Virus record (IMG/VR): IMGVR_UViG_2737471852_000002
Location: 1-51,736 of that record
Direction: 5' to 3' (one strand)
Origin: a virus
Taxonomy: Duplodnaviria; Heunggongvirae; Uroviricota; Caudoviricetes
Length of the DNA: 51,736 nt
Below, piece after piece: positions 1-11,939 of the stretch. The notes beneath the pieces are model-generated. The model saw only the letters and a list, made by a program, of their open reading frames with translations. It had not been told where the DNA came from and ran no database searches. Numbering within the stretch: the first letter of the stretch is position 1; every line of letters starts with the position of its first letter. The translations under genes were made by a program, and so were the position numbers.

Positions 1-789
1 TCAATATCTCTTATTAGGGTTTATTGAGTACTTTTTAAGCTTTGAAGCTACCCGACCAGCGTTACTGTTAGCATTGGTGACGTTGGTTTTTTCAGCTTCT
101 GTTAAGTCTGAATAATCCAGCTTCCAAGCCTTATTACATTTAATCTGAGCATCGAGAATATCATTTCTGATAGCTGGAGCGTAACCGGATACATCGCTAA
201 TATTCATTAATTCTTTGCACGATAGCATAGGCGCGTTATTGCGTTCAGTGGTCACGTTACCTGCATTCTTCTTACTGGTCACACCACCATCATTTGTGGT
301 AGCCGTTTTGCCAGTGGCTGCTGAAATATCAGTTTGCCCTACAATAACCTTAAAGTTGATTTCCTGAAAAGTTAGCTGGATTCTTAAGCCGTTTGAAATA
401 CCAACATCTTTAGAGGCTTTAAAACTAGTAATAATGGAATCGTCAATCTTAATCCCGTCTTTACAAATTACCGAAATAATCTGCTTCTGGTCACGCCAGT
501 TTTCAAGGGTGTCGATGAAGTTTTCTACTAATTGACCCTGACGAGTTAGTAATAAACTTCCTTCATAACCAACTACAACGACACCACTAATAGTGATTGT
601 TCTGGGTGCTCTTTGAACATTATCTGTGACGGTTTGCCCTGATTGCATGTTCTGTGTAGTTACCTGCATAGGACTATCAAATTCCATGTTTTCAGTTGCT
701 GATAAGGTTAAGAAGGCATCTACATTATCTCTTAAGTGGAAATAGATGCCATCTTTGCCACTGTAACGAATCTGATTAGAGTAAATCAT
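1..789 (-). CDS. phage tail-associated protein (possible distal tail protein) of the AT-rich module
   Basis: 262-aa ORF immediately downstream of the tape-measure-like gene on the same strand; AAGGAG 6 nt upstream of ATG at 789; no catalytic motif recognised. Confidence 0.4.
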
Positions 790-864
790 TAAATTCTCCT
801 TTGATTTCAAAGGCTTAGTGTATTTTAATCATTTTTAACCAAGCCTTTGATATATAAGTATTTT

Positions 865-904
865 CTCTGTTAAGCGTGAGCTACGTAAAAAATAATTTTT
901 GGTG
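865..904. repeat. 40-bp perfect direct repeat, copy 1 (second copy at 3138-3177)
   Basis: ctctgttaagcgtgagctacgtaaaaaataatttttggtg is identical at both positions; both copies are followed by ttcacgtag about 20 bp later. Confidence 0.85.
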
Positions 905-945
905 TGGGTATTAACTTTGCTTTATTCACGTAGAACACCGTTAAA

Positions 946-3123
946 TCAATCATCTTCTGGGAATGATGAACTTAATAGCGTAGCTTCTGCATATTGGTCG
1001 TAGATATTACTGCTAAAGGTCATAAAGCTGGTTTCATCTGGTTTAATGGCAACTTCACCACCAAGTGAAACTTTCACAGGCTCCTGAATACGTTTGCTCA
1101 AAGCACTAATTTCATCTCTCAGACTCTGAATATCTGCGCTGGTTAATGCTGAATCTTGCTTAATGTTGTTTAACTCTGGATGATTGAATCTTGCAATATT
1201 CATTGTGGCATTGTTAAACAATTCACCCATTGAACTAAAAATTTTATTCCATCCTTCGTTAATCATATTCGGTTTATTAGGGTCACCAGAATACACAGGA
1301 TTAAAGTCACTACCCACACCTACCCCAGATGGATGCATATTAGCGTTTTTGACTACTTCCTGATTCATAAAATCCAGTGCTTTCTTCAATGCATATAAAC
1401 CAAGAGTGACGCCTCTGATTTGTGGAATCATTGAAGCTAATGCTAACGCTGTTTCATAACCGTCATCAGCATAACCGATTGCAAGAGCACTACCTACACC
1501 ACCAGCTACACCTTTCAGTTTTCCACCACCTTTACCAGTAGCTACCTGACCAGCCACCTGATTAGCTCTTGTACCTAACGTTGTGATTGCTCTTGTCAGG
1601 TTCATAACCCCTGTAGTAGCACTGAATAGTGTCTTTGCAGATAACGCTATAGCAAGACCTTTGACAAAATTGATAAAACCATCACCGACTTCATCAAGTA
1701 GTTTTCGTTTAGTGTCATCAAGGCTGTAATAGAGCTGCTTAACCTGTAAAATCCAGCCTTCAATGTGATTGTTAAAGATACGGATGTCATCTACACCAGC
1801 TTTAAGCATGTCGATAAGTCCACCGATAGCATCACCAGCGATAGAAGAACTCATCCCCATTTCACTAAGCAGGTTACTCAGGCTGGATAAGAAGCCGTTT
1901 AGCTCATCCTGTGAACCTGAGAAGATTTTCACCATCGTGTCATCCCAGTTGTTTGCTAACTTACCTAAAGCTGTCTGGGTGCTCTTAGCGACTTCAGCCC
2001 AGCCACCCGCTTTATCAATCATCAAGCCCATCTGTTTAGCGACTTTAGGAAGAGTATCAGCGGAAAGAATCTTCCCGTCTTTCATCGCTTTATCAAGCTC
2101 TGTAGCAGTCATACCCAATGCTTCAGCGAACAGCTTAAATGCACCAGCCATACGGTCACCTAGCTGACCACGTAATTCCTCAGCCTGAATCTTGCCCTTA
2201 GAAGCCATCTGCTCAAAAGCTTTCAAAATGCCGTTTAGCTCGTCGTTAGAAAGCCCCATTAAGCGACTCATAGCCGTTGCATTACCAAATAGCTCCTGTG
2301 TCTGTTCCTGTGACATAGAACCCTGAGCACCTGCTGCAAACTTAGCGTAGCTTGATAGTCCTTCAGAGATATTAAGACCTGTCTTGTCTGCTAGATTTCG
2401 AATAAATACCTCAGCCTCAGAGGCTTTATCACCAAGTACAAACTTAGCGGCTCTCTGTGCGGAATCTCGTTTAAGACCTGCATTCATAATGGCCTTGTAA
2501 GCGTTAAGAGCACCCATCACAGAGTAAAATGCACCAGATAACTTAATTGCATTGCTTGCAAGATTATTAAATGCGTCGCTTGTATTACTAATGCTGGTGG
2601 ATGTATGACCTCTGGCTTTAGCAATTGCTTCTCGGACTGAAGAATTTAACTGAGCCAACTTCTCATTGAATTTTGAATTATCCATCTGACCAGCTTTAGC
2701 AGATAGCCCGTAAAACTGAGATTTGATGTATTTCTGCAAAATAGGGTCAAAGCCTTTTAGCTTGCTCATATTCGCTGAGTAAGCTGCTGTGATTGCTCTG
2801 TTTCCGCTAATTCGTGGCTGTCTTGGTTGTTTTGGAGGATTAACAGTGTCATTAAATCTGGTGGCAAACTGAAATGCTCTTGTGTTTCTTGCTCTCTGTT
2901 CAATCTTGTCAAAGGTCTTATTAAACTTCCTTTCAAGTTGCCCTAAAGAACTTGTCAGATTACTGTCAAGTTGCTTGGTATCGACCTTAAACGCTCTATT
3001 CAAATTACGTTCAATTCTTTGTGCTGACTGCAAAGCTGCCTTTTCAACTCTTTGCAAGCCCTTAATAACGCTCTCGCTGAAGCCTAGCTCAACGATAAAA
3101 CTATCAACTTTAAATTGTGCCAT
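946..3123 (-). CDS. tail tape measure-like protein (AT-rich module)
   Basis: 725-aa ORF, long helical and coiled-coil-like N-terminal half, glycine-rich hydrophobic segments (GKGGGKLKGVAGGVGSALAIGY), followed by a tail-protein-like gene; GAGGTG RBS before ATG at 3123. Confidence 0.55.
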   Translation of the reverse strand: MAQFKVDSFIVELGFSESVIKGLQRVEKAALQSAQRIERNLNRAFKVDTKQLDSNLTSSLGQLERKFNKTFDKIEQRARNTRAFQFATRFNDTVNPPKQPRQPRISGNRAITAAYSANMSKLKGFDPILQKYIKSQFYGLSAKAGQMDNSKFNEKLAQLNSSVREAIAKARGHTSTSISNTSDAFNNLASNAIKLSGAFYSVMGALNAYKAIMNAGLKRDSAQRAAKFVLGDKASEAEVFIRNLADKTGLNISEGLSSYAKFAAGAQGSMSQEQTQELFGNATAMSRLMGLSNDELNGILKAFEQMASKGKIQAEELRGQLGDRMAGAFKLFAEALGMTATELDKAMKDGKILSADTLPKVAKQMGLMIDKAGGWAEVAKSTQTALGKLANNWDDTMVKIFSGSQDELNGFLSSLSNLLSEMGMSSSIAGDAIGGLIDMLKAGVDDIRIFNNHIEGWILQVKQLYYSLDDTKRKLLDEVGDGFINFVKGLAIALSAKTLFSATTGVMNLTRAITTLGTRANQVAGQVATGKGGGKLKGVAGGVGSALAIGYADDGYETALALASMIPQIRGVTLGLYALKKALDFMNQEVVKNANMHPSGVGVGSDFNPVYSGDPNKPNMINEGWNKIFSSMGELFNNATMNIARFNHPELNNIKQDSALTSADIQSLRDEISALSKRIQEPVKVSLGGEVAIKPDETSFMTFSSNIYDQYAEATLLSSSFPEDD

Positions 3124-3137
3124 TGTTCATATTTCAC

Positions 3138-3177
3138 CTCTGTTAAGCGTGAGCTACGTAAAAAATAATTTTTGGTG
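3138..3177. repeat. 40-bp perfect direct repeat, copy 2
   Basis: identical to 865-904; lies 15 bp upstream of the tape-measure-like gene start. Confidence 0.85.
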
Positions 3178-3330
3178 GGTATATCTGTTCAGAAGATTTC
3201 ACGTAGCACATAGGATTCGATAGAAGACTATCTCATATACAAAAAAGGGAGAAACTACCGAATAATATCGATAATCTCTCCCCGTGTTATAGATTCGATA
3301 GAACCTATCTCATACACCCAACCAATTCTT

Positions 3331-3546
3331 TTAATGCATGACAAGATAATGTAGTTCCGTTTCACCTATGATTTGAGCATCAGAAGGAATACGGTCGATA
3401 CACCATTTTGGAATCTTGCGTGTTTTTGGTTTGCGTGAGGTGATAATTTGATGTTTGGTTTTAATTCTTAAGGCTGGCTTAGTTTGTAACTTTAAGTTTT
3501 CACAAACAGACTTAATAGTTTCATAGCGTTCTGTTAAATCAATCAT
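3331..3546 (-). CDS. hypothetical basic small protein
   Basis: 71-aa ORF, lysine/arginine-rich; no family recognised. Confidence 0.25.
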   Translation of the reverse strand: MIDLTERYETIKSVCENLKLQTKPALRIKTKHQIITSRKPKTRKIPKWCIDRIPSDAQIIGETELHYLVMH

Positions 3547-3569
3547 TAATCACCTCACATATTGCATAA

Positions 3570-4274
3570 TCAAACAGCCTTGCTAAATTCTCGTGGAACA
3601 CTCAGAAAATCATTGAAGCTGATAATCTGTGCCAACTCTTGACGGTACTCCTTAGCCAGCGCTTGATGGTCACTAATCAGCTTAGCCAGTCTTGATTTCA
3701 GTAAATTAATCTCATTTTCTCTTGCTTTCATCAGTTTCTCTTTGGCAATTTCTTCAAGCTCAGCTTGTGATTTATCAGCAACAATTAGAGACAGTCGATG
3801 TGGCGCTCTAATGGCTCTTTCTGTACGAACAACTCTTTGACCTTCTGGTAAATCTGCAATCACTTTACCAATCTCTACAGGGTCATACCCCCAACCGTCA
3901 CGGTCTAGTCGAGAGAAATAAGCATAAGGATTGGTTTGAAGCTCCATCAAAATAGCCATTTCGTCAATTTCGTCTTCAAGCTTGGACTGAATTTTCTCGT
4001 AAACACTTCTCATTGCTTCTTGAGAGTCTTTAATAGCTTGGAAATATCGGCGTTGTAGCTTCAACTTCAAATCAAGTTCACACCGTTCGTTCATAGAAAA
4101 ATCAATTTCAACTCTTGGAATCTCGAGTGGTTCTGGTGGAATATATGGACCTTTATTTACTTCGTGTGATTCCCGCCAAGCTCTATCAAAAGATTCACGC
4201 AAACTTAATTCGTGAATATCAAGTGCACTTGGTCGGCTTTCAATAATCATTTCATTTTCATCACGGATAGCCAT
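3570..4274 (-). CDS. hypothetical protein
   Basis: 234-aa ORF in the AT-rich module; charged and helical; no family recognised. Confidence 0.35.
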   Translation of the reverse strand: MAIRDENEMIIESRPSALDIHELSLRESFDRAWRESHEVNKGPYIPPEPLEIPRVEIDFSMNERCELDLKLKLQRRYFQAIKDSQEAMRSVYEKIQSKLEDEIDEMAILMELQTNPYAYFSRLDRDGWGYDPVEIGKVIADLPEGQRVVRTERAIRAPHRLSLIVADKSQAELEEIAKEKLMKARENEINLLKSRLAKLISDHQALAKEYRQELAQIISFNDFLSVPREFSKAV

Positions 4275-4762
4275 TAATACCTTTCCTCTTCTAAGATAAT
4301 TTATGTTTCAGTTTTTAAAAAGCACACCTGACATCCTCGAACTTAGAAGAGGCTTAAAAGGCGTTTGCCAAGTATGCTTTTTAAAAACTGAATAGCCCTA
4401 GATAATTTCTTATAAAGGGCCATTCATAAGGTGAAGAAATTAAAACATCTAAAGGATTCAAACGAATGAACAAAGACTTTTCGAGATGACCTCTCAGGTT
4501 GTATAAGAGGCCATGTAGCGAAAAGCATTGCACCTTTCAGAATGTTCGGTATAGAACATACCTCACCAACTCAGAATATCCATCCATCGGATTATTGAAA
4601 GAAATAAGAGAGAAATTCTCTCTATAATTAAAATTATGTCATGCTTAAGGTTATTTGTCAACAGCTTTTTAACAGATTGGTAACATTAATTCTTATTTAC
4701 CGTATTACCTACCCAGCAACCAACAAATAGCCCTAGCAACGTCCAAGCAATTATTAAACCCA

Positions 4763-5086
4763 TTAGTGAATCCTCACAGAATCCGTCACCAGAATATTGT
4801 CAGCGTACAGGATTGTCACAGCACCTTTCAAAAATTGCTCTGGGGAAATACTGTATTTATTCGTTTGCTCGATAACCAATCTTTTCATGCTGCTGTCTGC
4901 AATTGGTAGCATCATTCGAGGCTCGTTAAACTCCACCGACTGAATAAAGTCAGAGATGTTTTCTGCATTATCGGCCATCAGCTTTAACAGCCTGTCAAAA
5001 TCAATTGTCACACCTGCATCAGTGAAGCTTTGCACCATCATAGCGGTGTCGCTATCAACGAAAATCTGTAGCGGGAAGTTGTTCAT
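4763..5086 (-). CDS. hypothetical protein
   Basis: 107-aa ORF; no family recognised. Confidence 0.35.
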   Translation of the reverse strand: MNNFPLQIFVDSDTAMMVQSFTDAGVTIDFDRLLKLMADNAENISDFIQSVEFNEPRMMLPIADSSMKRLVIEQTNKYSISPEQFLKGAVTILYADNILVTDSVRIH

Positions 5087-5108
5087 TTCTTAAAATCTCC
5101 TTTTTACC

Positions 5109-5240
5109 AGACCTCCTCAATCGCTCTGTAACGAGCTAAACAGTCTTTTTCAGGGGTAGCCTGTACAGTGGTATTACCCACCCTAAAATAAGATAGTTTT
5201 TTGCGTTAGAATGCGATTGAGAGCGTCTGAGAAGCTGTTT
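5109..5240 (+). repeat. about 120-nt repeated element, copy B1 (paralogue at 6796-6905)
   Basis: shared 5' block agacctcYtcaatcgctctgtaacgagYtaaa and 3' block ttgYgtYagaatgcgRttgagRgcgtct; ctcaatcgc / gcgattgag can pair as a long-range stem. Confidence 0.5.
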
Positions 5241-5242
5241 TT

Positions 5243-5530
5243 CTAATTTCTCTTAAAGTCTCGGACTTGCATAAGATTTTTTGGTCTGGTATCGGCTCTG
5301 TTACCATTTCGATGGATAATTTGCTTATTGGATTGATAGCCATGATAAAGGAACCAGACAACATATTTCACATAGAATGTGTATCGACCTATATTAAATG
5401 TTTTGTTGCCGTAGTCGTCGGTATTTATCGTGACTGACCCCCCATCAGACCAGCACAGGGAATCACTGGATTCATCATAGATAAGGTGTTCTGCAAAATA
5501 TCTTCTAACATCTTCATGCCAAGGTTTCAT
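5243..5530 (-). CDS. HNH endonuclease (small HNH_3-type)
   Basis: 95-aa ORF with GYxxN...IHRNGNRADTRPKNL resembling the H-N-G ... DNR ... NL core of phage HNH nucleases; last gene of a 4-gene overlapping operon. Confidence 0.5.
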   Translation of the reverse strand: MKPWHEDVRRYFAEHLIYDESSDSLCWSDGGSVTINTDDYGNKTFNIGRYTFYVKYVVWFLYHGYQSNKQIIHRNGNRADTRPKNLMQVRDFKRN

Positions 5531-5742
5531 AAAACCTCCTCACCCCAATAACCTAATTCAATCTTATGACGTTCAAACCATTCCGGTTTAACTGCTGTTT
5601 TCAGTGTTTCATTTGGGCCAATGGCTTTAATGAAAATATCTTTTGAGTTATGGATGTCACCGAATCCGTTTCCTTTAATCAGGAGGTCGGAGATGTAGCG
5701 AATCATTTTATCTGTGTGGTATTCAAAGGTAACGCATAGCAT
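5527..5742 (-). CDS. hypothetical protein, translationally coupled to the HNH gene
   Basis: 71-aa ORF; its stop overlaps the HNH start by 4 nt. Confidence 0.35.
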   Translation of the reverse strand: MLCVTFEYHTDKMIRYISDLLIKGNGFGDIHNSKDIFIKAIGPNETLKTAVKPEWFERHKIELGYWGEEVL

Positions 5743-6020
5743 CAGACCTCCAGAGACAGTTTGCGAATCTTGATGCTCAATAGACGGGCAATATCAATTT
5801 TAAAGCTGTTAAGTGCCTTCAAAGTATCTAAAGCGTCCGTAGTAATTCGGATGTGCTTACGACCTTTAGAGACTGGATATTTAAGTAAATCCGACTCAGT
5901 GACTTCTTTAGCGATTGCAAGTTGCATAACAGTTTGATGAGGCAAGTTAGTCGCTCGTTTAATTCTGGTAAGCTCGTTAAAAGCTTCCTCTGAAATACGG
6001 GTTAATGTGTGTTTATTCAT
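5742..6020 (-). CDS. hypothetical protein (possible small DNA-binding protein)
   Basis: 92-aa ORF abutting both neighbours; basic and helical. Confidence 0.35.
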   Translation of the reverse strand: MNKHTLTRISEEAFNELTRIKRATNLPHQTVMQLAIAKEVTESDLLKYPVSKGRKHIRITTDALDTLKALNSFKIDIARLLSIKIRKLSLEV

Positions 6021-6021
6021 T

Positions 6022-6579
6022 TTAAAATTCCTCTGTAACTAAATACGGGTCAAACTCGAAATCTGGTTGCTCGTTTTCCATTGGCTCAATATTCCCAACG
6101 GCAACATGATGTTCAACAATACCAATTAGCTTTGCACACATTACAGCAAGCAATGCACAATATTTATCGCTTGGTAATTCATAACTAAGTCTGGTTGCTT
6201 GTCGCTGAAGATAATTTGTCACGGTAGCTGAGTTAATTTCATCAAGATTCTTTAGAATATAAAATAGCTTTCTGTTGTATTTTGGGTGACCTTCGCTTCT
6301 GCAAAATCCGATAATTACATCTTCAAACTTGCGTGATAATTGCTCGTAAGAATCAACGTTAGCCAAATAATTTTTGATGCTGTTCTGGGTGCTCTTTCTG
6401 GTTGACATATAACGACTCCTCGGTGTAATTGCCCGAATTACTTCGTCAATGCCTTTGCGTTCTGCTCTGGTGAACTTGGGTACTTCGTGGCTGGTGGGGT
6501 TGTTTGTGTAAGCGTAGGAGTTGTGCTTGTTGCGTTCTCTCGATGCCTGAAGCATCGCTCTAAATTCTCTGTCGTTCAT
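6022..6579 (-). CDS. hypothetical protein, first gene of the 4-gene operon
   Basis: 185-aa ORF; the 6022/6020 junction and tight packing indicate co-transcription. Confidence 0.4.
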   Translation of the reverse strand: MNDREFRAMLQASRERNKHNSYAYTNNPTSHEVPKFTRAERKGIDEVIRAITPRSRYMSTRKSTQNSIKNYLANVDSYEQLSRKFEDVIIGFCRSEGHPKYNRKLFYILKNLDEINSATVTNYLQRQATRLSYELPSDKYCALLAVMCAKLIGIVEHHVAVGNIEPMENEQPDFEFDPYLVTEEF

Positions 6580-6663
6580 TCATAAGCTAGTCCTTATAAT
6601 TGTTAATTCTCTGTTAACTTATATAGACAATACTAGCATTTTCAAAGACTAATGTCAAGCATT

Positions 6664-6696
6664 TTTTAACATTTCATTAACATCTGTGGTATAATG
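6664..6696 (+). promoter_or_regulatory. predicted sigma70 promoter with extended -10
   Basis: TTAACA, 18-bp spacer ending in TG, then TATAAT (tgtggtataatggg). Confidence 0.4.
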
Positions 6697-6795
6697 GGTT
6701 TATGGGGAGAGTAAAATATGAGGCGTGGCTATGAGGTTTATTCGATAAACCGAATCAACTATGAGAGTGGTCACATGGTTATTGCATTGCACACA

Positions 6796-6905
6796 GACCT
6801 CTTCAATCGCTCTGTAACGAGTTAAATGGCCTCTTCAGGTCAACTCATAAGGTCAGGTACTTTTTTGTGTCAGAATGCGGTTGAGGGCGTCTCACAAGGA
6901 AATTT
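6796..6905 (+). repeat. about 120-nt repeated element, copy B2
   Basis: paralogue of 5109-5240; the two changes within the candidate stem (gcggttgag vs gcgattgag) convert A-U pairs to G-U wobble pairs when read on the + strand. Confidence 0.5.
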
Positions 6906-6906
6906 A

Positions 6907-7083
6907 ATGGTAAATCTCCCTCCTGAACTGGGGTCACCTGATGTATGGGCTGGTGGAGGTATTGGACTTATTGCAGGTCTGCTACTTCGTTACGTCCTTG
7001 TCAGAGTGCTTGTTGTCTTTAAACTGTTCGGTCGTACATGGACGCTTGACCTTAAGGATAACGACCATACAGAACCCCGCTAA
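6907..7083 (+). CDS. possible small membrane protein
   Basis: 58-aa ORF with AAGGA RBS and a hydrophobic core (GGGIGLIAGLLLRYVLVRVLVVF), downstream of the promoter at 6664-6696 and element B2. Confidence 0.25.
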   Translation: MVNLPPELGSPDVWAGGGIGLIAGLLLRYVLVRVLVVFKLFGRTWTLDLKDNDHTEPR

Positions 7084-7200
7084 ACTCCCTTCAAAACCCC
7101 CTGTACGTGATGGTATAGGGGTATCTTTAGCATTTTGTGCTATCTATTAAAAAATAGCTTGACAGAACAGGAAAGCTGTATCTATCAAGCATTCACCTCT

Positions 7201-7385
7201 CTGACAGTAATTTCTAAAAGTTCTTATTTTTCAATAAGTTGTAATTAGCCATATATAGAGAACTGACAAGTCTCTTCACAGTTAACTCTGTAACCTTAAC
7301 AGTAACTTCTAAAAATACTTATTTTTCAATGAGTTGTAATCACCCAATATATAAGACTGTCCAGTACCTTCACAGATAACTTCAA
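7201..7385. repeat. imperfect tandem duplication of about 90 bp
   Basis: acagtaaYttctaaaaRtNcttatttttcaatRagttgtaat ... cttcacag occurs twice head to tail. Confidence 0.6.
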
Positions 7386-8472
7386 GCCTTCTTAGCTATC
7401 CACTAAGCGGGAGAAGAGCGACACCCAAGAAAGGGAAGCTCCCTTCTTAACCGACCTTCTTAACCAGCCCTTTACGTTATTCGTTCACAGTGTTGATAAG
7501 TGGTTTTGCCCTCTGTTTCTGTTATCATCGGGCTTACCTTATCAGGGCTTTGAAATGTCCCTGTAACTTCCCTCTTAACGGGAGAGAAAGAACATAGTGA
7601 CCCCAAGCGAAGCGCCCCTCTAAAAGATTTTTTAGCTATTTTGTTTAAAAACATATCAAACGATACATTTTATTGATTTAGGTCAAAGACAAAAGCATTG
7701 ACAAAATGGTATGATTGTTCACATAGCCCTCTCTTAACAGACTTTTTAAGAGCTTTTGAGAAGTTTGTTAAACAGACACTCTTTCTGGAGTGTTGTCTTT
7801 TACTTAAGAGGCTTGTTTAGGTAACTCTCAAGACATTTCTTAAGACTTCACTGTTAAGATAGAACCTACCTTCGGTTTCATGGTTCTCTTCCTCCCGTTA
7901 AACAGTTCTTCCTAGCAACTTCATAGTTCTCTGTCAAGTATCTTTGAAGATTCTATCAAAACCCTCTAAATCTGACCTGATATAGATGCTGTGAAGGCAT
8001 GTTCTCTAGGTCTGTGTAGCTCACTAAGCGAGAGAGGGGATATGGTGACCATAGGGGAACCCCTCCTACTTAAAAGAACTATTTGATATTATTGTGATGG
8101 TTGTTTAAGATGCAACTGTGCAGACACCTTAACGGTTTCTCTACACCCCTTATAGTCTGGCGAGGTAGGGTACGGCTAGGTAGGGTGTGGTTGGGTCTGG
8201 TATGGGTGGATTGTCGTAGCCACGTTAAAAATCGACTTGTAAAGGGACTCTTTCGGGAGTCCTTTTTAGTTTGTATAAAATCTGTACAGTAACTTTTCAG
8301 ATTCTGAAAATTTTTATAAAAAATAATCAGGCCTCTTCTAAGTCTCTTCAACCAAATCTTTCAAAAATATCACAAGACTATGTATACCTGCTAAGTACCC
8401 GTCACTACGCCTAAGTGGTCCCCTTTGCAAAAAAGCCAAATATCAGTCACATCCATGTAACTATTCAGTAAC

Positions 8473-9021
8473 TTATTTAGCAAGTCTGTAATAAGTTGCT
8501 CTAGAGATTCCTAACTCTTCCTGAATCTGCAACCTCGTTTTACCTTGTGAAATAAGCATCTTTACAGTCTCTGAAGAAGCTTTTACGGGTCTCCCCATGT
8601 GAACCCCTTCAGCTTTAGCACGTTCAATACCAGCCTTTCTACGTTCACTGATAAGGTCTTTTTCAAGGTCAGCTAAACCAGCCATCATAGTAAGCATTGC
8701 TCTACCGATTGGTGTTAATAAGTCGAAACCTTCACGCAAAGAAACAACTCTCACACCTTTAGACTGTAGTGACTCCACGTTAGAGAGCACATCAACGGTA
8801 TTACGCCCTAAACGGTCAATAGCTACCACAACTAACGTATCGTCACACCTTACATAGTTCATCATGTCTCTAAAACCATCTCTGCTGGTGGCCTTTGTAG
8901 TTCCTGAGACAGCCTCATCAATAAACCATTTATCGACCTTGTGAACCTTCTCTATCTGTAGTTTCTGGTTGTCTACAGTCTGGTCTTGTGTTGATACCCT
9001 GCAATAACCAATCACCGCCAT
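8473..9021 (-). CDS. small serine recombinase (resolvase/invertase family)
   Basis: 182 aa; N-terminal VIGYCRVSTQDQ with catalytic Ser context, C-terminal HTH (RLQIQEELGISRATYYRLAK). Confidence 0.85.
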   Translation of the reverse strand: MAVIGYCRVSTQDQTVDNQKLQIEKVHKVDKWFIDEAVSGTTKATSRDGFRDMMNYVRCDDTLVVVAIDRLGRNTVDVLSNVESLQSKGVRVVSLREGFDLLTPIGRAMLTMMAGLADLEKDLISERRKAGIERAKAEGVHMGRPVKASSETVKMLISQGKTRLQIQEELGISRATYYRLAK

Positions 9022-9032
9022 ACATCCCCCTT

Positions 9033-9160
9033 AGAAGTCTCAAAAGTTAGTCTCATAAGTTTAGCTGTCTCATAATCCAAAAACAACCTTTTGAGACTAC
9101 TTGAGGGTGCATTCTACCGTTACGTTGAAAGTGTCTCAAAAGGAAGTCCTTTTAAGACTG
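9033..9160. promoter_or_regulatory. cluster of direct and inverted GTCTCA(A/T)AAG motifs; candidate res/crossover site
   Basis: motif at about 9037, 9051, 9068, 9131 and inverted at about 9088 and 9149; 9133-9158 forms a 26-bp palindrome gtctcaaaag-gaagtc-cttttaagac; directly upstream of the recombinase gene. Confidence 0.4.
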
Positions 9161-9802
9161 GTTATGAAGGAGCTATGAGGTTGATTCCTAGAACTAACCG
9201 AATCAACTATAACCATCACCTCCTAATATTCACGTAGGAAATCGTTAAGGGTTTTATAGTTACACCATGTGACCAACTGCATGAATAGCGTTATATACTC
9301 CTGTATATAGCACTTTTCTAGGAGTCGAGAGAGGAACGACTAACACGATACAGTTTACCCTGAAAAGAGACTTCACAGATTCTCTATATATTTCAATAAG
9401 TTATGCTAAAAAGAGACTATACCGATACTGTATAGAATCTGTGTAAAACTGCTTAGATACTTGGGAAAATGCCTTTAAATTGCATAATCATAGGGGTTGG
9501 AACAAGCCCAACTACACCTGATAAAGCCTGTTATTAACAGGTCTCTTAGAAAACCGAATAGACTTCATTCAAGGGTCATTGAAGTCATAATCATTTCAGT
9601 AGAAAAACCAGGTCTCGATTTTAAATGCAAATAGCAATCATATTCAATAAGGCAAGACGATCAGGATCAGTGAAAATGTCATTTTTGGCGTAATTACCCT
9701 TACTTTATGCATGGCCTCAACAAAGACATCATCTTTCCGTTGCAGATCTTCGCCCTTTCAAATAACGTACTTTACAACTTTCCCGAACAAGGAGTTGTGC
9801 CC

Positions 9803-10099
9803 GTGTTGTATGTTATTTACGCTCAAGACAAAGCTGATAGCCTCGAAAAACGCCTTTCCGTTCGTCCGGCACATTTAGCACGTTTACAGTTACTGCATGA
9901 TGAAGGTCGTTTGTTGACAGCTGGTCCAATGCCAGCGGTAGACAGTAACGATCCAGGGGCTGCGGGATTTACTGGCTCAACCGTTATTGCTGAATTTGAA
10001 TCGCTGGAAGCAGCTCAGGCCTGGGCCGATGCTGACCCGTACGTAGCGGCAGGAGTCTATGAACACGTTTCAGTGAAACCATTTAAGAAAGTGTTCTAA
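9803..10099 (+). CDS. YciI-like (Dabb-fold) small protein
   Basis: about 99 aa from a GTG 8 nt after AAGGAG; [21 protein letters not shown] and C-terminal [17 protein letters not shown] resemble the YciI family; GC content host-like. Confidence 0.5.
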
Positions 10100-10217
10100 T
10101 TTATTAGAAATTTGCACTTAAATCAAAAAGTTACGGACAATTCAACCACCAATCAATAAATTAAAGGGCACATTAAAGTACACAATATTTGTGCCCTTCT
10201 CTGTTTCTTTCCCGTTA

Positions 10218-10766
10218 TCAGCTAGCTGGAAACTTTTTATACAGAGTTGAGAGCCCTACTCCATACGTTTTTGATACGCTTTGTCGTGATTCACCGGTTG
10301 CCATCCGCTCCCCCATTTCCCGCCATTGCTCATCCGTGAACTTAGGCCTGCGACCACCAACTCGCCCTTTTGCCCTGGCTACGGCCAGCCCTGCTAAGGT
10401 ACGTTCGCTATTAAGATCAGATTCATATTGTGCTGCGGAAAGGATGTTACGAAAGTTATAGCGGCCGCTGGCTGTTTTGAGATCCACGCCATCGGTAATA
10501 CTGCGGAAGTTGATACCCTTTTCCTGTAACTGCTGGAACATCAACAGCGCATGCAGAACGTTGCGGCCTATCCTGTCCAGCTTCCAGACCACCAGTTCAT
10601 CCCCCGGCTGCATAGTGGCGATCAGCCGTTTTAGAACCGGCCGATTCGATTTCCTCCCGCTGGCATGCTCTTCAAAAATTTTCTCACAACCCGCTGACTT
10701 GAGCGCCGTTAGTTGCAATTCAGTGTCCTGGTGGTTTGTTGATACTCGGGCATAACCGTAAATCAT
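10218..10766 (-). CDS. pin: Pin/Gin/Hin-family DNA invertase (serine recombinase)
   Basis: MIYGYARVSTNHQD N-terminus, resolvase catalytic domain and C-terminal HTH; AGGAGA RBS; immediately beside the invertible tail-fibre segment. Confidence 0.9.
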   Translation of the reverse strand: MIYGYARVSTNHQDTELQLTALKSAGCEKIFEEHASGRKSNRPVLKRLIATMQPGDELVVWKLDRIGRNVLHALLMFQQLQEKGINFRSITDGVDLKTASGRYNFRNILSAAQYESDLNSERTLAGLAVARAKGRVGGRRPKFTDEQWREMGERMATGESRQSVSKTYGVGLSTLYKKFPAS

Positions 10767-10825
10767 GGGATTTCTCCTGTTATGAAAACAGGAGAAACGG
10801 CGAAGCATCACCAGATTTTTGATGG

Positions 10826-10851
10826 TTATAAAAAAGGTTGGTTTGGGAGAA
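10826..10851. other. 26-bp invertase crossover site (hix/gix-like), left
   Basis: TTATAAAAAAGG-TT-GGTTTGGGAGAA; one half-site is the reverse complement of TTCTCCCAAACC, close to the gix/hix half-sites as I recall them. Confidence 0.7.
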
Positions 10852-11334
10852 GGTTCGGCATTACCCGTTGGCGTGCCTGTTCCGTGGCCTTCCGCCACTC
10901 CGCCAACAGGCTGGCTGAAATGCAACGGGGCGGCTTTTTCTGCTGAAGAATACCCGGAACTGGCAAAGGTTTACCCGACAAATAAATTGCCTGATTTACG
11001 CGGTGAGTTTATTCGTGGCTGGGATGATGGAAGAGGGATTGATACTAACCGTAGCTTGCTTTCGTCACAGGGAGATACCATTCGGAATATAACAGGCTTT
11101 ATAAATGAAGTTAAAGGCACCATTGATACAGCAACTTTCAGGTTACAGACTGGTACTGGTGCTTTTGCCTTAGCATCTCAAGCTACGCGAAATATCTATA
11201 ATAACCTAGGCACATATGAAACAAAAAATACCCCTTACACAGGATTCAGTTTTGATGCATCCAGGGTTGTACCAACAGCATCAGAGAATCGCCCTCGAAA
11301 CATTGCATTTAACTATATCGTGAGAGCAGCATAA
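10852..11334 (+). CDS. alternative tail-fibre C-terminal cassette, currently in the unexpressed orientation
   Basis: begins at the crossover with ...GLGEGSALPVGVPVPWP...GWLKCNGAAFS...YPELAKVYP...DLRGEFIRGWDDGRG, the classic variable C-terminal domain of Mu S / lambda Stf-type fibres; no start codon of its own. Confidence 0.7.
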   Translation, partial: GSALPVGVPVPWPSATPPTGWLKCNGAAFSAEEYPELAKVYPTNKLPDLRGEFIRGWDDGRGIDTNRSLLSSQGDTIRNITGFINEVKGTIDTATFRLQTGTGAFALASQATRNIYNNLGTYETKNTPYTGFSFDASRVVPTASENRPRNIAFNYIVRAA

Positions 11335-11939
11335 TGGATAAAGCAATATTAAATAGTGAGCTTATTGCTACAAAGTCGGGGGATATTACCGTTTATAACT
11401 ATGATAGTGAGACGCAGGAATATATTTCAGCTTCAACTGAATATCTTGCCATTGGTGTCGGTATTCCTGCATATTCCTGTTTAGATGCCCCTGGCACATA
11501 TAAGGTGGGTTATGCTATCTGTCGTTCTGCAAATTTTAACTCATGGGAATATGTGCCAGACCATCGCGGTGAAATCGTCTATAGCACCAAAACTGGAGAG
11601 TCAAAAGAAATCACAGCTCCGGGTGATTACCCTGAAAATACCACAACTATCGCCCCGTTAACACCATACGATAAATGGGATGGTGAGAAATGGGTGACCG
11701 ATACTGAGGCACAGCATAGCGCCGCAGTAGACACGGCAGAAGCACAGCGTCAGTCACTGATTGATGCTGCAATGGCTTCCATCAGTCTGATTCAGCTGAA
11801 ATTACAGGCCGGACGGAAGCTGATGCAGGCAGAAACAACCCGGCTTAACGCCGTGCTGGATTACATTGACGCGGTGACGGCAACAGATACCAGCACCGCG
11901 CCTGATATTATTTGGCCTGCTTTCCCTGAGACTGATTAA
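11334..11939 (+). CDS. tail fibre assembly protein (Tfa/U-type) paired with the alternative cassette
   Basis: 201 aa, ATG overlaps the cassette stop; C-terminal LQAGRKL ... LDYIDAV ... WPAFPE typical of Tfa proteins. Confidence 0.75.
   Translation: MDKAILNSELIATKSGDITVYNYDSETQEYISASTEYLAIGVGIPAYSCLDAPGTYKVGYAICRSANFNSWEYVPDHRGEIVYSTKTGESKEITAPGDYPENTTTIAPLTPYDKWDGEKWVTDTEAQHSAAVDTAEAQRQSLIDAAMASISLIQLKLQAGRKLMQAETTRLNAVLDYIDAVTATDTSTAPDIIWPAFPETD

Follow-up and report, generated by a model that had tools for sequence, protein, structure and literature searches.

The window analysed here is the whole 51,736-nucleotide stretch of the IMG/VR virus record IMGVR_UViG_2737471852_000002 (Caudoviricetes), and the system under study is a gene for a small serine recombinase of 182 aa (8473-9021, minus strand) together with the array of short half-sites upstream of it. 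The E. coli tonB-yciI intergenic DNA and yciI occupy 9569-10100 of the window, with 98-99% identity to E. coli records, and the part of the window left of 9569 belongs, as judged from sequence comparison, to a conserved integrative island of ~11 kb. Related loci are referred to below by number. For example, L001 and L002 are full annotated copies of the island in O103:H2 strain 129 (tonB/yciI gap) and in strain M19 (wrbA/ymdF gap), and L044 is a circular metagenome contig.

The 182-aa small serine recombinase

The protein carries a Resolvase catalytic domain (Pfam PF00239, E 1.7e-41) and an HTH_7 domain at residues 143-179 (PF02796, E 1.7e-6). With these domains and the catalytic R8, S10 and DRLGR in place, the initial annotation of the gene as a resolvase-type serine recombinase is confirmed. 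Both the catalytic domain and the C-terminal helix-turn-helix with the overall length point to membership of the small serine recombinases. The protein can be aligned over its full length to the Gin invertase (E 6e-23), which is its top match among solved structures, and to the gamma-delta/Tn3 resolvase (E 2e-20) with similar scores, and its Y-C-R8-V-S10-T and D-R-L-G-R segments align with those of Gin and gamma-delta. R8-V-S10-T and DRLGR are retained in 26/26 homologues examined, and the recognition-helix region IS(K/R)AT(Y/F)YRL is also conserved among them. Similarity to Sin is low, with E 9e-15 for a full-length Sin-family chain (2r0q) and ~2e-8 for Sin catalytic domains. The closest plasmid-borne relatives are 46-51% identical and include a gene on a gonococcal conjugative plasmid annotated 'Res'.

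The half-site array

When the 51.7-kb window was scanned for GTCTCAWAAG with at most 1 mismatch, 11 matches were found against 5.3 expected, and 6 of these fall within 122 bp (9037-9158), where the whole-window rate predicts only ~0.013 matches. The half-sites lie at 9037, 9050, 9067 and 9133 on the plus strand and at 9088 and 9149 on the minus strand, so that the four direct and two inverted GTCTCA(A/T)AAG sites described earlier were all recovered. The 26-bp palindrome reported at 9133-9158 also holds, its 12-nt arms being complementary at 11/12 positions.

The six half-sites can be arranged into three sites. Site I (9133-9158), the putative crossover site, is a 12-2-12 palindrome, GTCTCAAAAGGA-AG-TCCTTTTAAGAC, with a non-palindromic 2-bp centre. 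Site II (9067-9097) consists of the inverted half-sites GTCTCATAATCC / ACCTTTTGAGAC, whose outer ends are 31 bp apart. Site III (9037-9059) consists of the direct half-sites GTCTCAAAAG and GTCTCATAAG in a 13-bp register, and it ends 15 bp before the start codon (9021). Measured from centre to centre, the spacing is 34 bp between sites II and III and 63.5 bp between sites I and II. With a crossover site of inverted half-sites and adjacent accessory sites in a fixed geometry, the array has the make-up expected of a res-type site. A sigma-70 promoter of the recombinase gene is predicted at 9111-9139 on the minus strand, with its -35 element (TTGAGA) inside site I and its -10 element (TAGAAT) at 9116-9111; it scored 10/12 in a consensus scan, and a -10-like element, (G/C/A)AGAAT, is retained in several lineages. 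There is exactly one site I and one array per complete element, as seen in the part of the element in the window and in L001, L002 and circular L044.

Conservation of the array across relatives

In a scan with one genome per species, homologues 63-69% identical to the recombinase were found in at least 13 Enterobacterales genera, which include Rahnella, Klebsiella, Leclercia, Mixta, Erwinia, Mangrovibacter, Kosakonia, Serratia, Buttiauxella, Enterobacter, Lonsdalea, Biostraticola and others. Nearly all of these homologues have six half-sites upstream with unchanged orientations. In 16 aligned upstream regions, sites I, II and III have invariant lengths of 26, 31 and 23 bp, sites II and III are always separated by 7 bp, and the I-II gap is 34-35 bp; the exception is Lonsdalea with 23 bp, which is one helical turn shorter. 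Between 8 lineages, identity is 86% in the half-site columns compared with 50% in the intervening columns and 22% in the 45 nt upstream of site I. Nine E. coli-type islands share an almost unchanged stretch of 150 bp ahead of the gene, even where the gene itself is at 74-80% identity. A further 80 loci from metagenomes gave the same picture. In 58 of these metagenome loci, site I was located by a pattern search at 134-146 nt upstream of the ATG, and of eleven loci missed by the pattern, visual inspection recovered site I in 9. The multi-subsite res region proposed in the initial annotation is thus well supported, as the number, orientation, length and spacing of the sites are conserved while the intervening DNA diverges.

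The centre of site I is CT, AG or TC (CC in Lonsdalea) and is never a palindromic pair. Among E. coli-type elements, the main recurrent difference in site I is an AG centre versus its reverse complement CT, and a few arm positions also vary in some of these elements. The switch is seen at 9145-9146 of the window and at the equivalent positions in L001-L008 and L037-L073, in sites that are otherwise near-identical; in some lineages the entire site I appears flipped relative to sites II and III. This suggests no constraint on which way the centre points with respect to the accessory sites. The AG/CT flip was considered as a possible footprint of recombination. A simple inversion, however, would leave the centre unchanged as seen from the left flank, and the flip more likely arose by a turn of the loop between the inverted arms. 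One divergent arrangement was found in L020 (Pantoea dispersa), where only site III lies upstream of 10001 and sites I and II are replaced by unrelated sequence; this is a natural variant whose res is incomplete.

These data bear on whether the array is only an operator, with the protein mainly repressing its own and perhaps a divergent promoter, and with recombination taking place elsewhere or lost. Site I does overlap the -35 element and sites II and III lie in the 5' leader, and the initial annotation had itself foreseen that the repeats might be ordinary promoter/operator elements. We nevertheless consider this improbable. The conserved phasing, the invariant subsite lengths and the always-asymmetric centre are what a recombination site needs and go beyond the needs of an operator: the six sites of invariant length and the change of one helical turn between sites I and II exceed what repression requires, and the asymmetry of the centre is relevant only to strand exchange. 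In addition, the catalytic residues are strictly retained over 63-100% identity, and no matching site was found in the helper-type phage genome (wV8, see below) or, beyond one predicted prophage region, in IMG/VR.

The position of the module is constant in many islands of several types across genera, with the gene and the sites intact, which argues for selection in the context of the island. This also bears on the idea that the module is a leftover Tn3-family cointegrate-resolution system, or a captured multimer-resolution system of a plasmid, with no present role in the island. A res-like site beside a resolvase-like gene, with the plasmid-borne relatives described above, speaks for such an origin. 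On the other hand, neither a transposase nor terminal inverted repeats were found in the island, and the constant position with an intact gene and sites across genera speaks against it. We regard this origin without function as highly unlikely.

Resolvase or invertase

Alternatively, the protein might be an invertase of the Hin/Gin type and turn over a segment with a promoter in it. Candidate segments include the ~1.1 kb enclosed by the imperfect inverted repeats at 8274-8300 and 9360-9386, and a portion of the ORF-poor region (ORF, open reading frame) between p185 and the recombinase gene. Site I is a 12-2-12 site of 26 bp with an asymmetric centre, as are hix and gix, the best PHROG family label of the protein is 'DNA invertase', Gin leads the solved-structure matches, and the imperfect inverted repeats do flank the recombinase gene. 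These repeats contain no GTCTCA half-sites, however, and only a single site I-like sequence is present per complete element; no second crossover site was found in the window part of the element, L001, L002 or L044. All 9 genomic loci and every metagenomic locus that includes the region have the same gene order and orientation, and no inverted variant was seen among them. The single site per element and the collinear loci therefore rule out a layout of two inverted sites, and adjacent accessory sites of fixed geometry are a feature of resolvases. An invertase at this locus is thus very unlikely in our view.

A separate invertase-like small serine recombinase gene is located at 10218-10925 (minus strand), in a neighbouring prophage to the right of yciI. 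A phi80-type attachment sequence (10081-10200) lies directly right of yciI and is followed by this second element (10218-11939), in which the recombinase gene stands beside ORFs that resemble tail-fibre genes by appearance. It looks like the invertase module of a separate prophage.

The direct repeats around 6.7 and 9.2 kb

The initial annotation also described direct repeats of ~45 bp that bracket a 2.4-kb unit with the recombinase gene. The repeats are real, although they are not 45 contiguous bases; each consists of a 16-nt block (15/16 identical) and a 15-nt block (15/15), which gives 30/31 matched positions, and the two blocks are held apart by a 4-nt spacer in copy 1 (6728-6762) and by an 8-nt spacer in copy 2 (9172-9210). 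Each copy forms a small hairpin (GTTKATTC...GAATCAAC). The hairpin mini-insertion of copy 1 (6733-6762, plus strand) is 30 bp long and is flanked by duplicated CTATGAG, and that of copy 2 (9172-9210, plus strand) has a variable loop and is flanked by CTATGA/AACTAT repeats.

The two copies vary independently. The position of copy 1 is empty in 6/8 compared islands (L001, L003, L004, L005, L006 and L008); the copy is present in the window and in L007, with a remnant in L002. L001 has no copy 2, and in other elements the loop of this copy is anywhere from 5 nt to more than 60 nt long. Among 22 relatives that could be scored at both positions, 3 have both copies, 10 have copy 2 only, 1 has copy 1 only and 8 have neither. 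A third insertion position was found in L008 (~4770-4800), between the GGT-repeat element described below and its terminator. The ~30-bp hairpin (GAGGTTTATTC..TAAACCGAATCAACTAT) thus occurs at three places in related islands with constant orientation and with duplicated CTAT(GA) flanks. Its loop accepts nested insertions (AGGGGTTGG..CAAGCCCAACTA), and the nested unit is also found alone at 9497-9518 of the window. In sequence the hairpin behaves like a miniature mobile element or one generated by slippage.

If these hairpin repeats (6728-6762 and 9172-9210) were themselves the recombination sites, the 2.4 kb between them would be excised as a circle, and their direct orientation and a similarity well beyond chance are in keeping with such a model. 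We reject it and give it almost no credence. Neither hairpin copy contains a recombinase half-site, both copies occur together in 3/22 relatives and neither in 8/22, and the hairpin is also found at the third position in L008. Elements with neither copy (e.g. L001 and circular L044) retain an intact recombinase and res. Genomes lacking the 6.7-9.2 kb unit had been suggested as a check; there are none among the relatives compared, and no deletion or inversion of the interval was seen. The truly excising unit is predicted to be the whole ~11-kb island, by means of the large serine recombinase at another site.

The integrative island and its boundaries

The boundaries of the island were obtained by comparing an empty site (L032), the attL of L001 and the attR of the window. 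The island is 11,046 bp long in L001 and is bounded by a 13-bp attachment core, TCAAGGGTCATTG, which is found at 9569-9581 of the window and also at 12476-12488 of L001. The window holds the island part at 1-9581; the left ~1.5 kb with the large serine recombinase gene falls outside it. The right end (9544-9581) comprises an arm specific to the large recombinase (9544-9568) and the core (9569-9581), which overlaps the tonB start codon. The recombinase/res module lies ~410 bp from this end. The right-end module between res and the attachment site (9215-9543) ends in the palindrome CCTGTTATTAACAGG and is kept at four different chromosomal insertion sites; in the circular form it sits between res and the large-recombinase gene.

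The order of genes in the island is the large serine recombinase, a Dit-like "baseplate" protein, a tape measure, several unknowns, an HNH endonuclease, three unknowns, the ORF-poor stretch of ~1.9 kb and the 182-aa recombinase. In the window, from right to left, this corresponds to res and the recombinase gene, the ORF-poor region, p185-p92-p71-HNH-p107-p234-p71b, the tape measure (946-3123) and the Dit-like protein (1-810). For p185, p92, p71, p107, p234 and p71b, no Pfam family at the curated threshold, no PHROGs match and no wV8 match was found; p234 has two sub-threshold Pfam matches only, and p185 and p234 had no match in NCBIfam. No tRNA or tmRNA genes were found, and Rfam gave no match either for the whole window at the gathering threshold or for 6500-9650 at E<=1.

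Besides the tonB/yciI and wrbA/ymdF gaps, further copies of the island interrupt mdtG or adjoin lafU. When 5,426 complete E. coli genomes were searched with the 3.6-kb query 6000-9600, 550 (~10%) matched at least part of it, and at least 80% of the query was covered in 55 of those (~1%). A megablast of 6000-10200 against phage records gave the phi80-type attachment sequence beside yciI as the sole match, the rest of the island being absent from them, and the plasmid matches were confined to tonB-yciI DNA in chromosomal records that had been misfiled. Insertion at the core keeps the tonB reading frame whole and displaces the native tonB promoter region by 11 kb. Insertion at the tonB start may alter TonB-dependent iron uptake and the sensitivity to TonB-dependent phages and colicins. 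In the literature searched, no publication describing such islands or satellites was found.

The same res/recombinase module is also present in small islands of other types. In Klebsiella it accompanies a major capsid protein and a tyrosine integrase, and in Buttiauxella it occurs with SIR2-like, Beta-protein and M78-peptidase/HTH domain proteins, an HNH endonuclease and a tyrosine integrase. The SIR2-like, Beta-protein and M78-peptidase/HTH proteins are possibly defence cargo. The positions noted for these islands are L024 11149-15099 and L031 15122-16141.

Links to Felix O1-type phages and a possible circular form

The only structural genes recognised in the island are those for the tape measure and the Dit-like protein, and both lead to the Ounavirinae. 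Aligned over its full length, the Dit-like protein shares ~72% identity with the Felix O1-type protein encoded right after the tape measure (wV8 gp075), and the best full-length matches of the tape measure are Ounavirinae proteins with 30-33% identity. A third link is noncoding. A GGTNN pentamer-repeat element (8155-8269, plus strand) has ~ten GGTNN pentamers followed by GGGTGGATTGTCGTAGCCACGTTAAAAATCGAC and a terminator hairpin (8241-8269). Its part at 8155-8236, which comprises the ~ten pentamers and a conserved 33-mer, is 75-88% identical to a noncoding stretch downstream of the DNA ligase gene in 92 phage records, and the identifiable records among those 92 are Ounavirinae (Felixounavirus, Mooglevirus). 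The element is also found at L009 2995-3082 and L010 ~3001-3074, and several GGTNN arrays are present at 59.3-60.9 kb of wV8 (L012), near the DR_4 repeats of that record. One possibility is a small RNA whose GGU repeats act as a protein sponge; another is a signal for replication or packaging that was taken over from the helper. In wV8 (88.5 kb), the putative helper, no copy of the recombinase and no res-like site were found, and in IMG/VR no res-like sites were found beyond one predicted prophage region. A recombinase acting on helper DNA was also considered, and it was dropped in view of these results.

L044 (ERZ506742 NODE-633) is an 11,233-bp metagenome contig with a 55-bp terminal overlap, so that it closes on itself. 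It joins the left end of a wrbA-type island, with the large recombinase gene, to the right end with an overlap of ~7 bp; that is, attP is rebuilt, with res ~360 bp away from it. This closure indicates either a circular island or tandem copies of it. L044 is of the wrbA type, and an exact tonB-type attP junction was not found in any metagenome locus. The element is a small integrative island that encodes an integrase of its own but no complete sets of genes for virions and replication, as is expected of phage satellites, and it resembles a satellite of virulent Felix O1-type phages, a lifestyle that we infer from these homologies.

Proposed role of the module

We consider it reasonably probable that the gene and the array form an autoregulated res-type resolvase module which reduces island multimers to monomers, and that the island is a Felix O1-type satellite. 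The catalytically competent recombinase would bind as dimers to sites I, II and III, which together would make up a 122-bp res-type site, with the crossover at the central dinucleotide of site I. Binding to site I would cover the -35 element of the recombinase promoter, and therefore the gene would be autoregulated. With one res per element, recombination would need two head-to-tail copies of the element. The likely reaction would then be an accessory-site-dependent resolution of multimers, tandem copies or concatemers into monomers. The separate large serine recombinase would integrate and excise the ~11-kb island, and replicated or concatemer-packaged DNA would be cut to single units before integration.

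The size of the island is consistent with this role. PICMI, a satellite of a virulent phage, is packaged as an 8-mer concatemer (PMC10803314). Here the ratio of 88.5 kb to 11.05 kb is 8.0, that is, about eight island copies would fill a helper-sized genome, and the concatemer-to-monomer role is proposed for this reason. The packaging of PICMI and the size ratio together lead to our working model, in which copies that are replicated, in tandem or delivered as a concatemer would be reduced to monomers by the resolvase. In a broader and more tentative form, which we regard as possible rather than probable, the island would be the first of a widespread family of Ounavirinae satellites in Enterobacterales, with the resolvase and res turning helper-sized concatemers of ~8 copies (or replicative multimers) into integration-ready circles. 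We know of no satellite with such a concatemer-to-circle resolution step.

Several observations weigh against the proposed role. The sequence of the recombinase is no nearer to resolvases than to invertases, and its PHROG label favours the latter. An asymmetric centre in a crossover site of 26 bp is characteristic of invertases and not of Tn3-type resolvases. The known satellites (PLE, PICMI, P4, PICI) are not known to require a resolvase. Among the island genes none for replication was recognised. No virion-derived island sequence was found, and IMG/VR holds the island only in a predicted prophage region. The L044 circle could reflect a tandem chromosomal array instead of free circles. Finally, the R-interface of Tn3/gamma-delta is formed by R2, R32, K54 and E56 (PMC9943657); R32 aligns with K31 in this protein, and R2, K54 and E56 are not conserved, the aligned residues being A2, Y and R. 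Any synaptic complex must therefore use other contacts.

Other features of the ORF-poor region

A back-to-back pair of strong promoter-like sequences was found at 6630-6695. TTGACA-17-TAGTAT reads leftward into p185 and TTAACA-18-TGgTATAAT reads rightward into the ORF-poor region, and the segment is almost invariant in 9 elements. The region described as ORF-poor contains a gene for a 58-aa hydrophobic protein (6907-7083, plus strand), which is annotated in relatives and was detected by tblastn with 76-100% identity in most E. coli-type loci where the region is present. The gene lies downstream of the rightward strong promoter (6666-6695) and of a highly conserved leader of ~200 nt. Its product may act as a toxin, in exclusion or in the manner of a holin.

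Two 95-bp tandem promoter-like repeats are located at 7204-7381. Three or four hairpin units of the form (C)ACTAAGCG(G/A)GAGA...GGGG..CCCC were also seen at 7395-7460, 7560-7625, 8015-8080 and 9300-9345, and they are loosely like the repeated leader hairpins (AACGGGGAGGG..CCTTCCCCACTAAG) upstream of the wV8 early genes at 8.1-13.6 kb.

Comparison with known systems

When compared with Tn3/gamma-delta, whose recombinase is also ~183 aa, the module has a similar geometry. The res of Tn3 is 114 bp long with three dimer sites (PMC9943657). The module likewise has three adjacent dimer-type subsites over ~120 bp upstream of the recombinase's own gene, the crossover site is farthest from the gene and overlaps the promoter, and there is one site per element, which would act only on duplicated copies. 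In Tn3/gamma-delta the centres are ~34.5 bp (II-III) and ~53 bp (I-II) apart, so that the II-III spacing of ~34 bp is shared and that between sites I and II is off by about one helical turn. The half-sites have a TGTCT core similar to the TGTCYNNTA of Tn3/gamma-delta. The differences lie in the details: the subsites are 26/31/23 bp here versus 28/34/25 bp in Tn3/gamma-delta. Site III is direct here and inverted in Tn3, the centre of site I is CT/AG/TC/CC here and a palindromic AT in Tn3, and the present system is without R2/K54/E56 and a Tn3-type transposase, its host element being an integrative island.

The Sin/beta resolvases of Gram-positive plasmids, which serve in plasmid multimer resolution, share with the module an accessory site of directly repeated half-sites (site II in Sin, site III here) and, in the case of Sin, a gap of 30-35 bp next to site I, which is occupied by HU/IHF in Sin. 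No obvious IHF-like consensus was seen when the I-II gap was read by eye. Sin uses two dimer sites, an inverted site I and a direct site II, and a host bending protein, in contrast to the three recombinase sites of the present array. With Hin/Gin/Cin/Pin the likeness is in the crossover site of 26 bp, with two 12-bp arms and an asymmetric 2-bp core, and in a comparable protein size and sequence identity. These invertases, however, act on two inverted sites with a Fis-bound enhancer and without adjacent accessory sites, whereas here one site is accompanied by accessory sites.

Because the subsite lengths, the direct site III, the asymmetric centre and the R-interface residues all differ, the module is best described as a candidate module for res-type resolution, whose new layout stands between those of Tn3 and Sin and places it outside both subfamilies. 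The conserved layout mixes three classes, with an invertase-like asymmetric 26-bp crossover site, a Tn3-like three-site phasing and a Sin-like direct-repeat accessory site. As this mixed layout is without the inter-dimer contact residues of Tn3, it offers a new test of how accessory sites impose resolution selectivity.

The island context may turn out to hold more novelty than the module. With the module as a marker, a set of small Enterobacterales islands can be recognised, some of which carry copies of tail genes and of a noncoding element of Felix O1-type phages. Should these prove to be satellites, parasitism of the PLE/PICMI type would also occur in E. coli and related bacteria and would also affect a phage group that is used for typing and therapy. 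Like PLE and PICMI, the present element is a small island of ~11 kb that encodes its own integrase; recognisable genes are few, a large region is noncoding, and there is homology to a group of virulent phages. As with PICMI, it is about one eighth of the genome of its putative helper. The integrase of PLE is a large serine recombinase, as in this island. The differences are that the island has tape-measure and Dit-like tail genes and a resolvase/res module; no resolvase is known for PLE, and the PICMI paper mentions no resolvase or serine recombinase (PMC10803314).

A functional analogy, and only that, can be drawn with Cre/loxP of P1, for which the module would be a serine-recombinase counterpart. 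Cre/loxP circularises or monomerises redundant or multimeric phage-related DNA after entry and resolves dimers. The two differ in mechanism, in that Cre is a tyrosine recombinase which acts on a simple 34-bp site without accessory sites.

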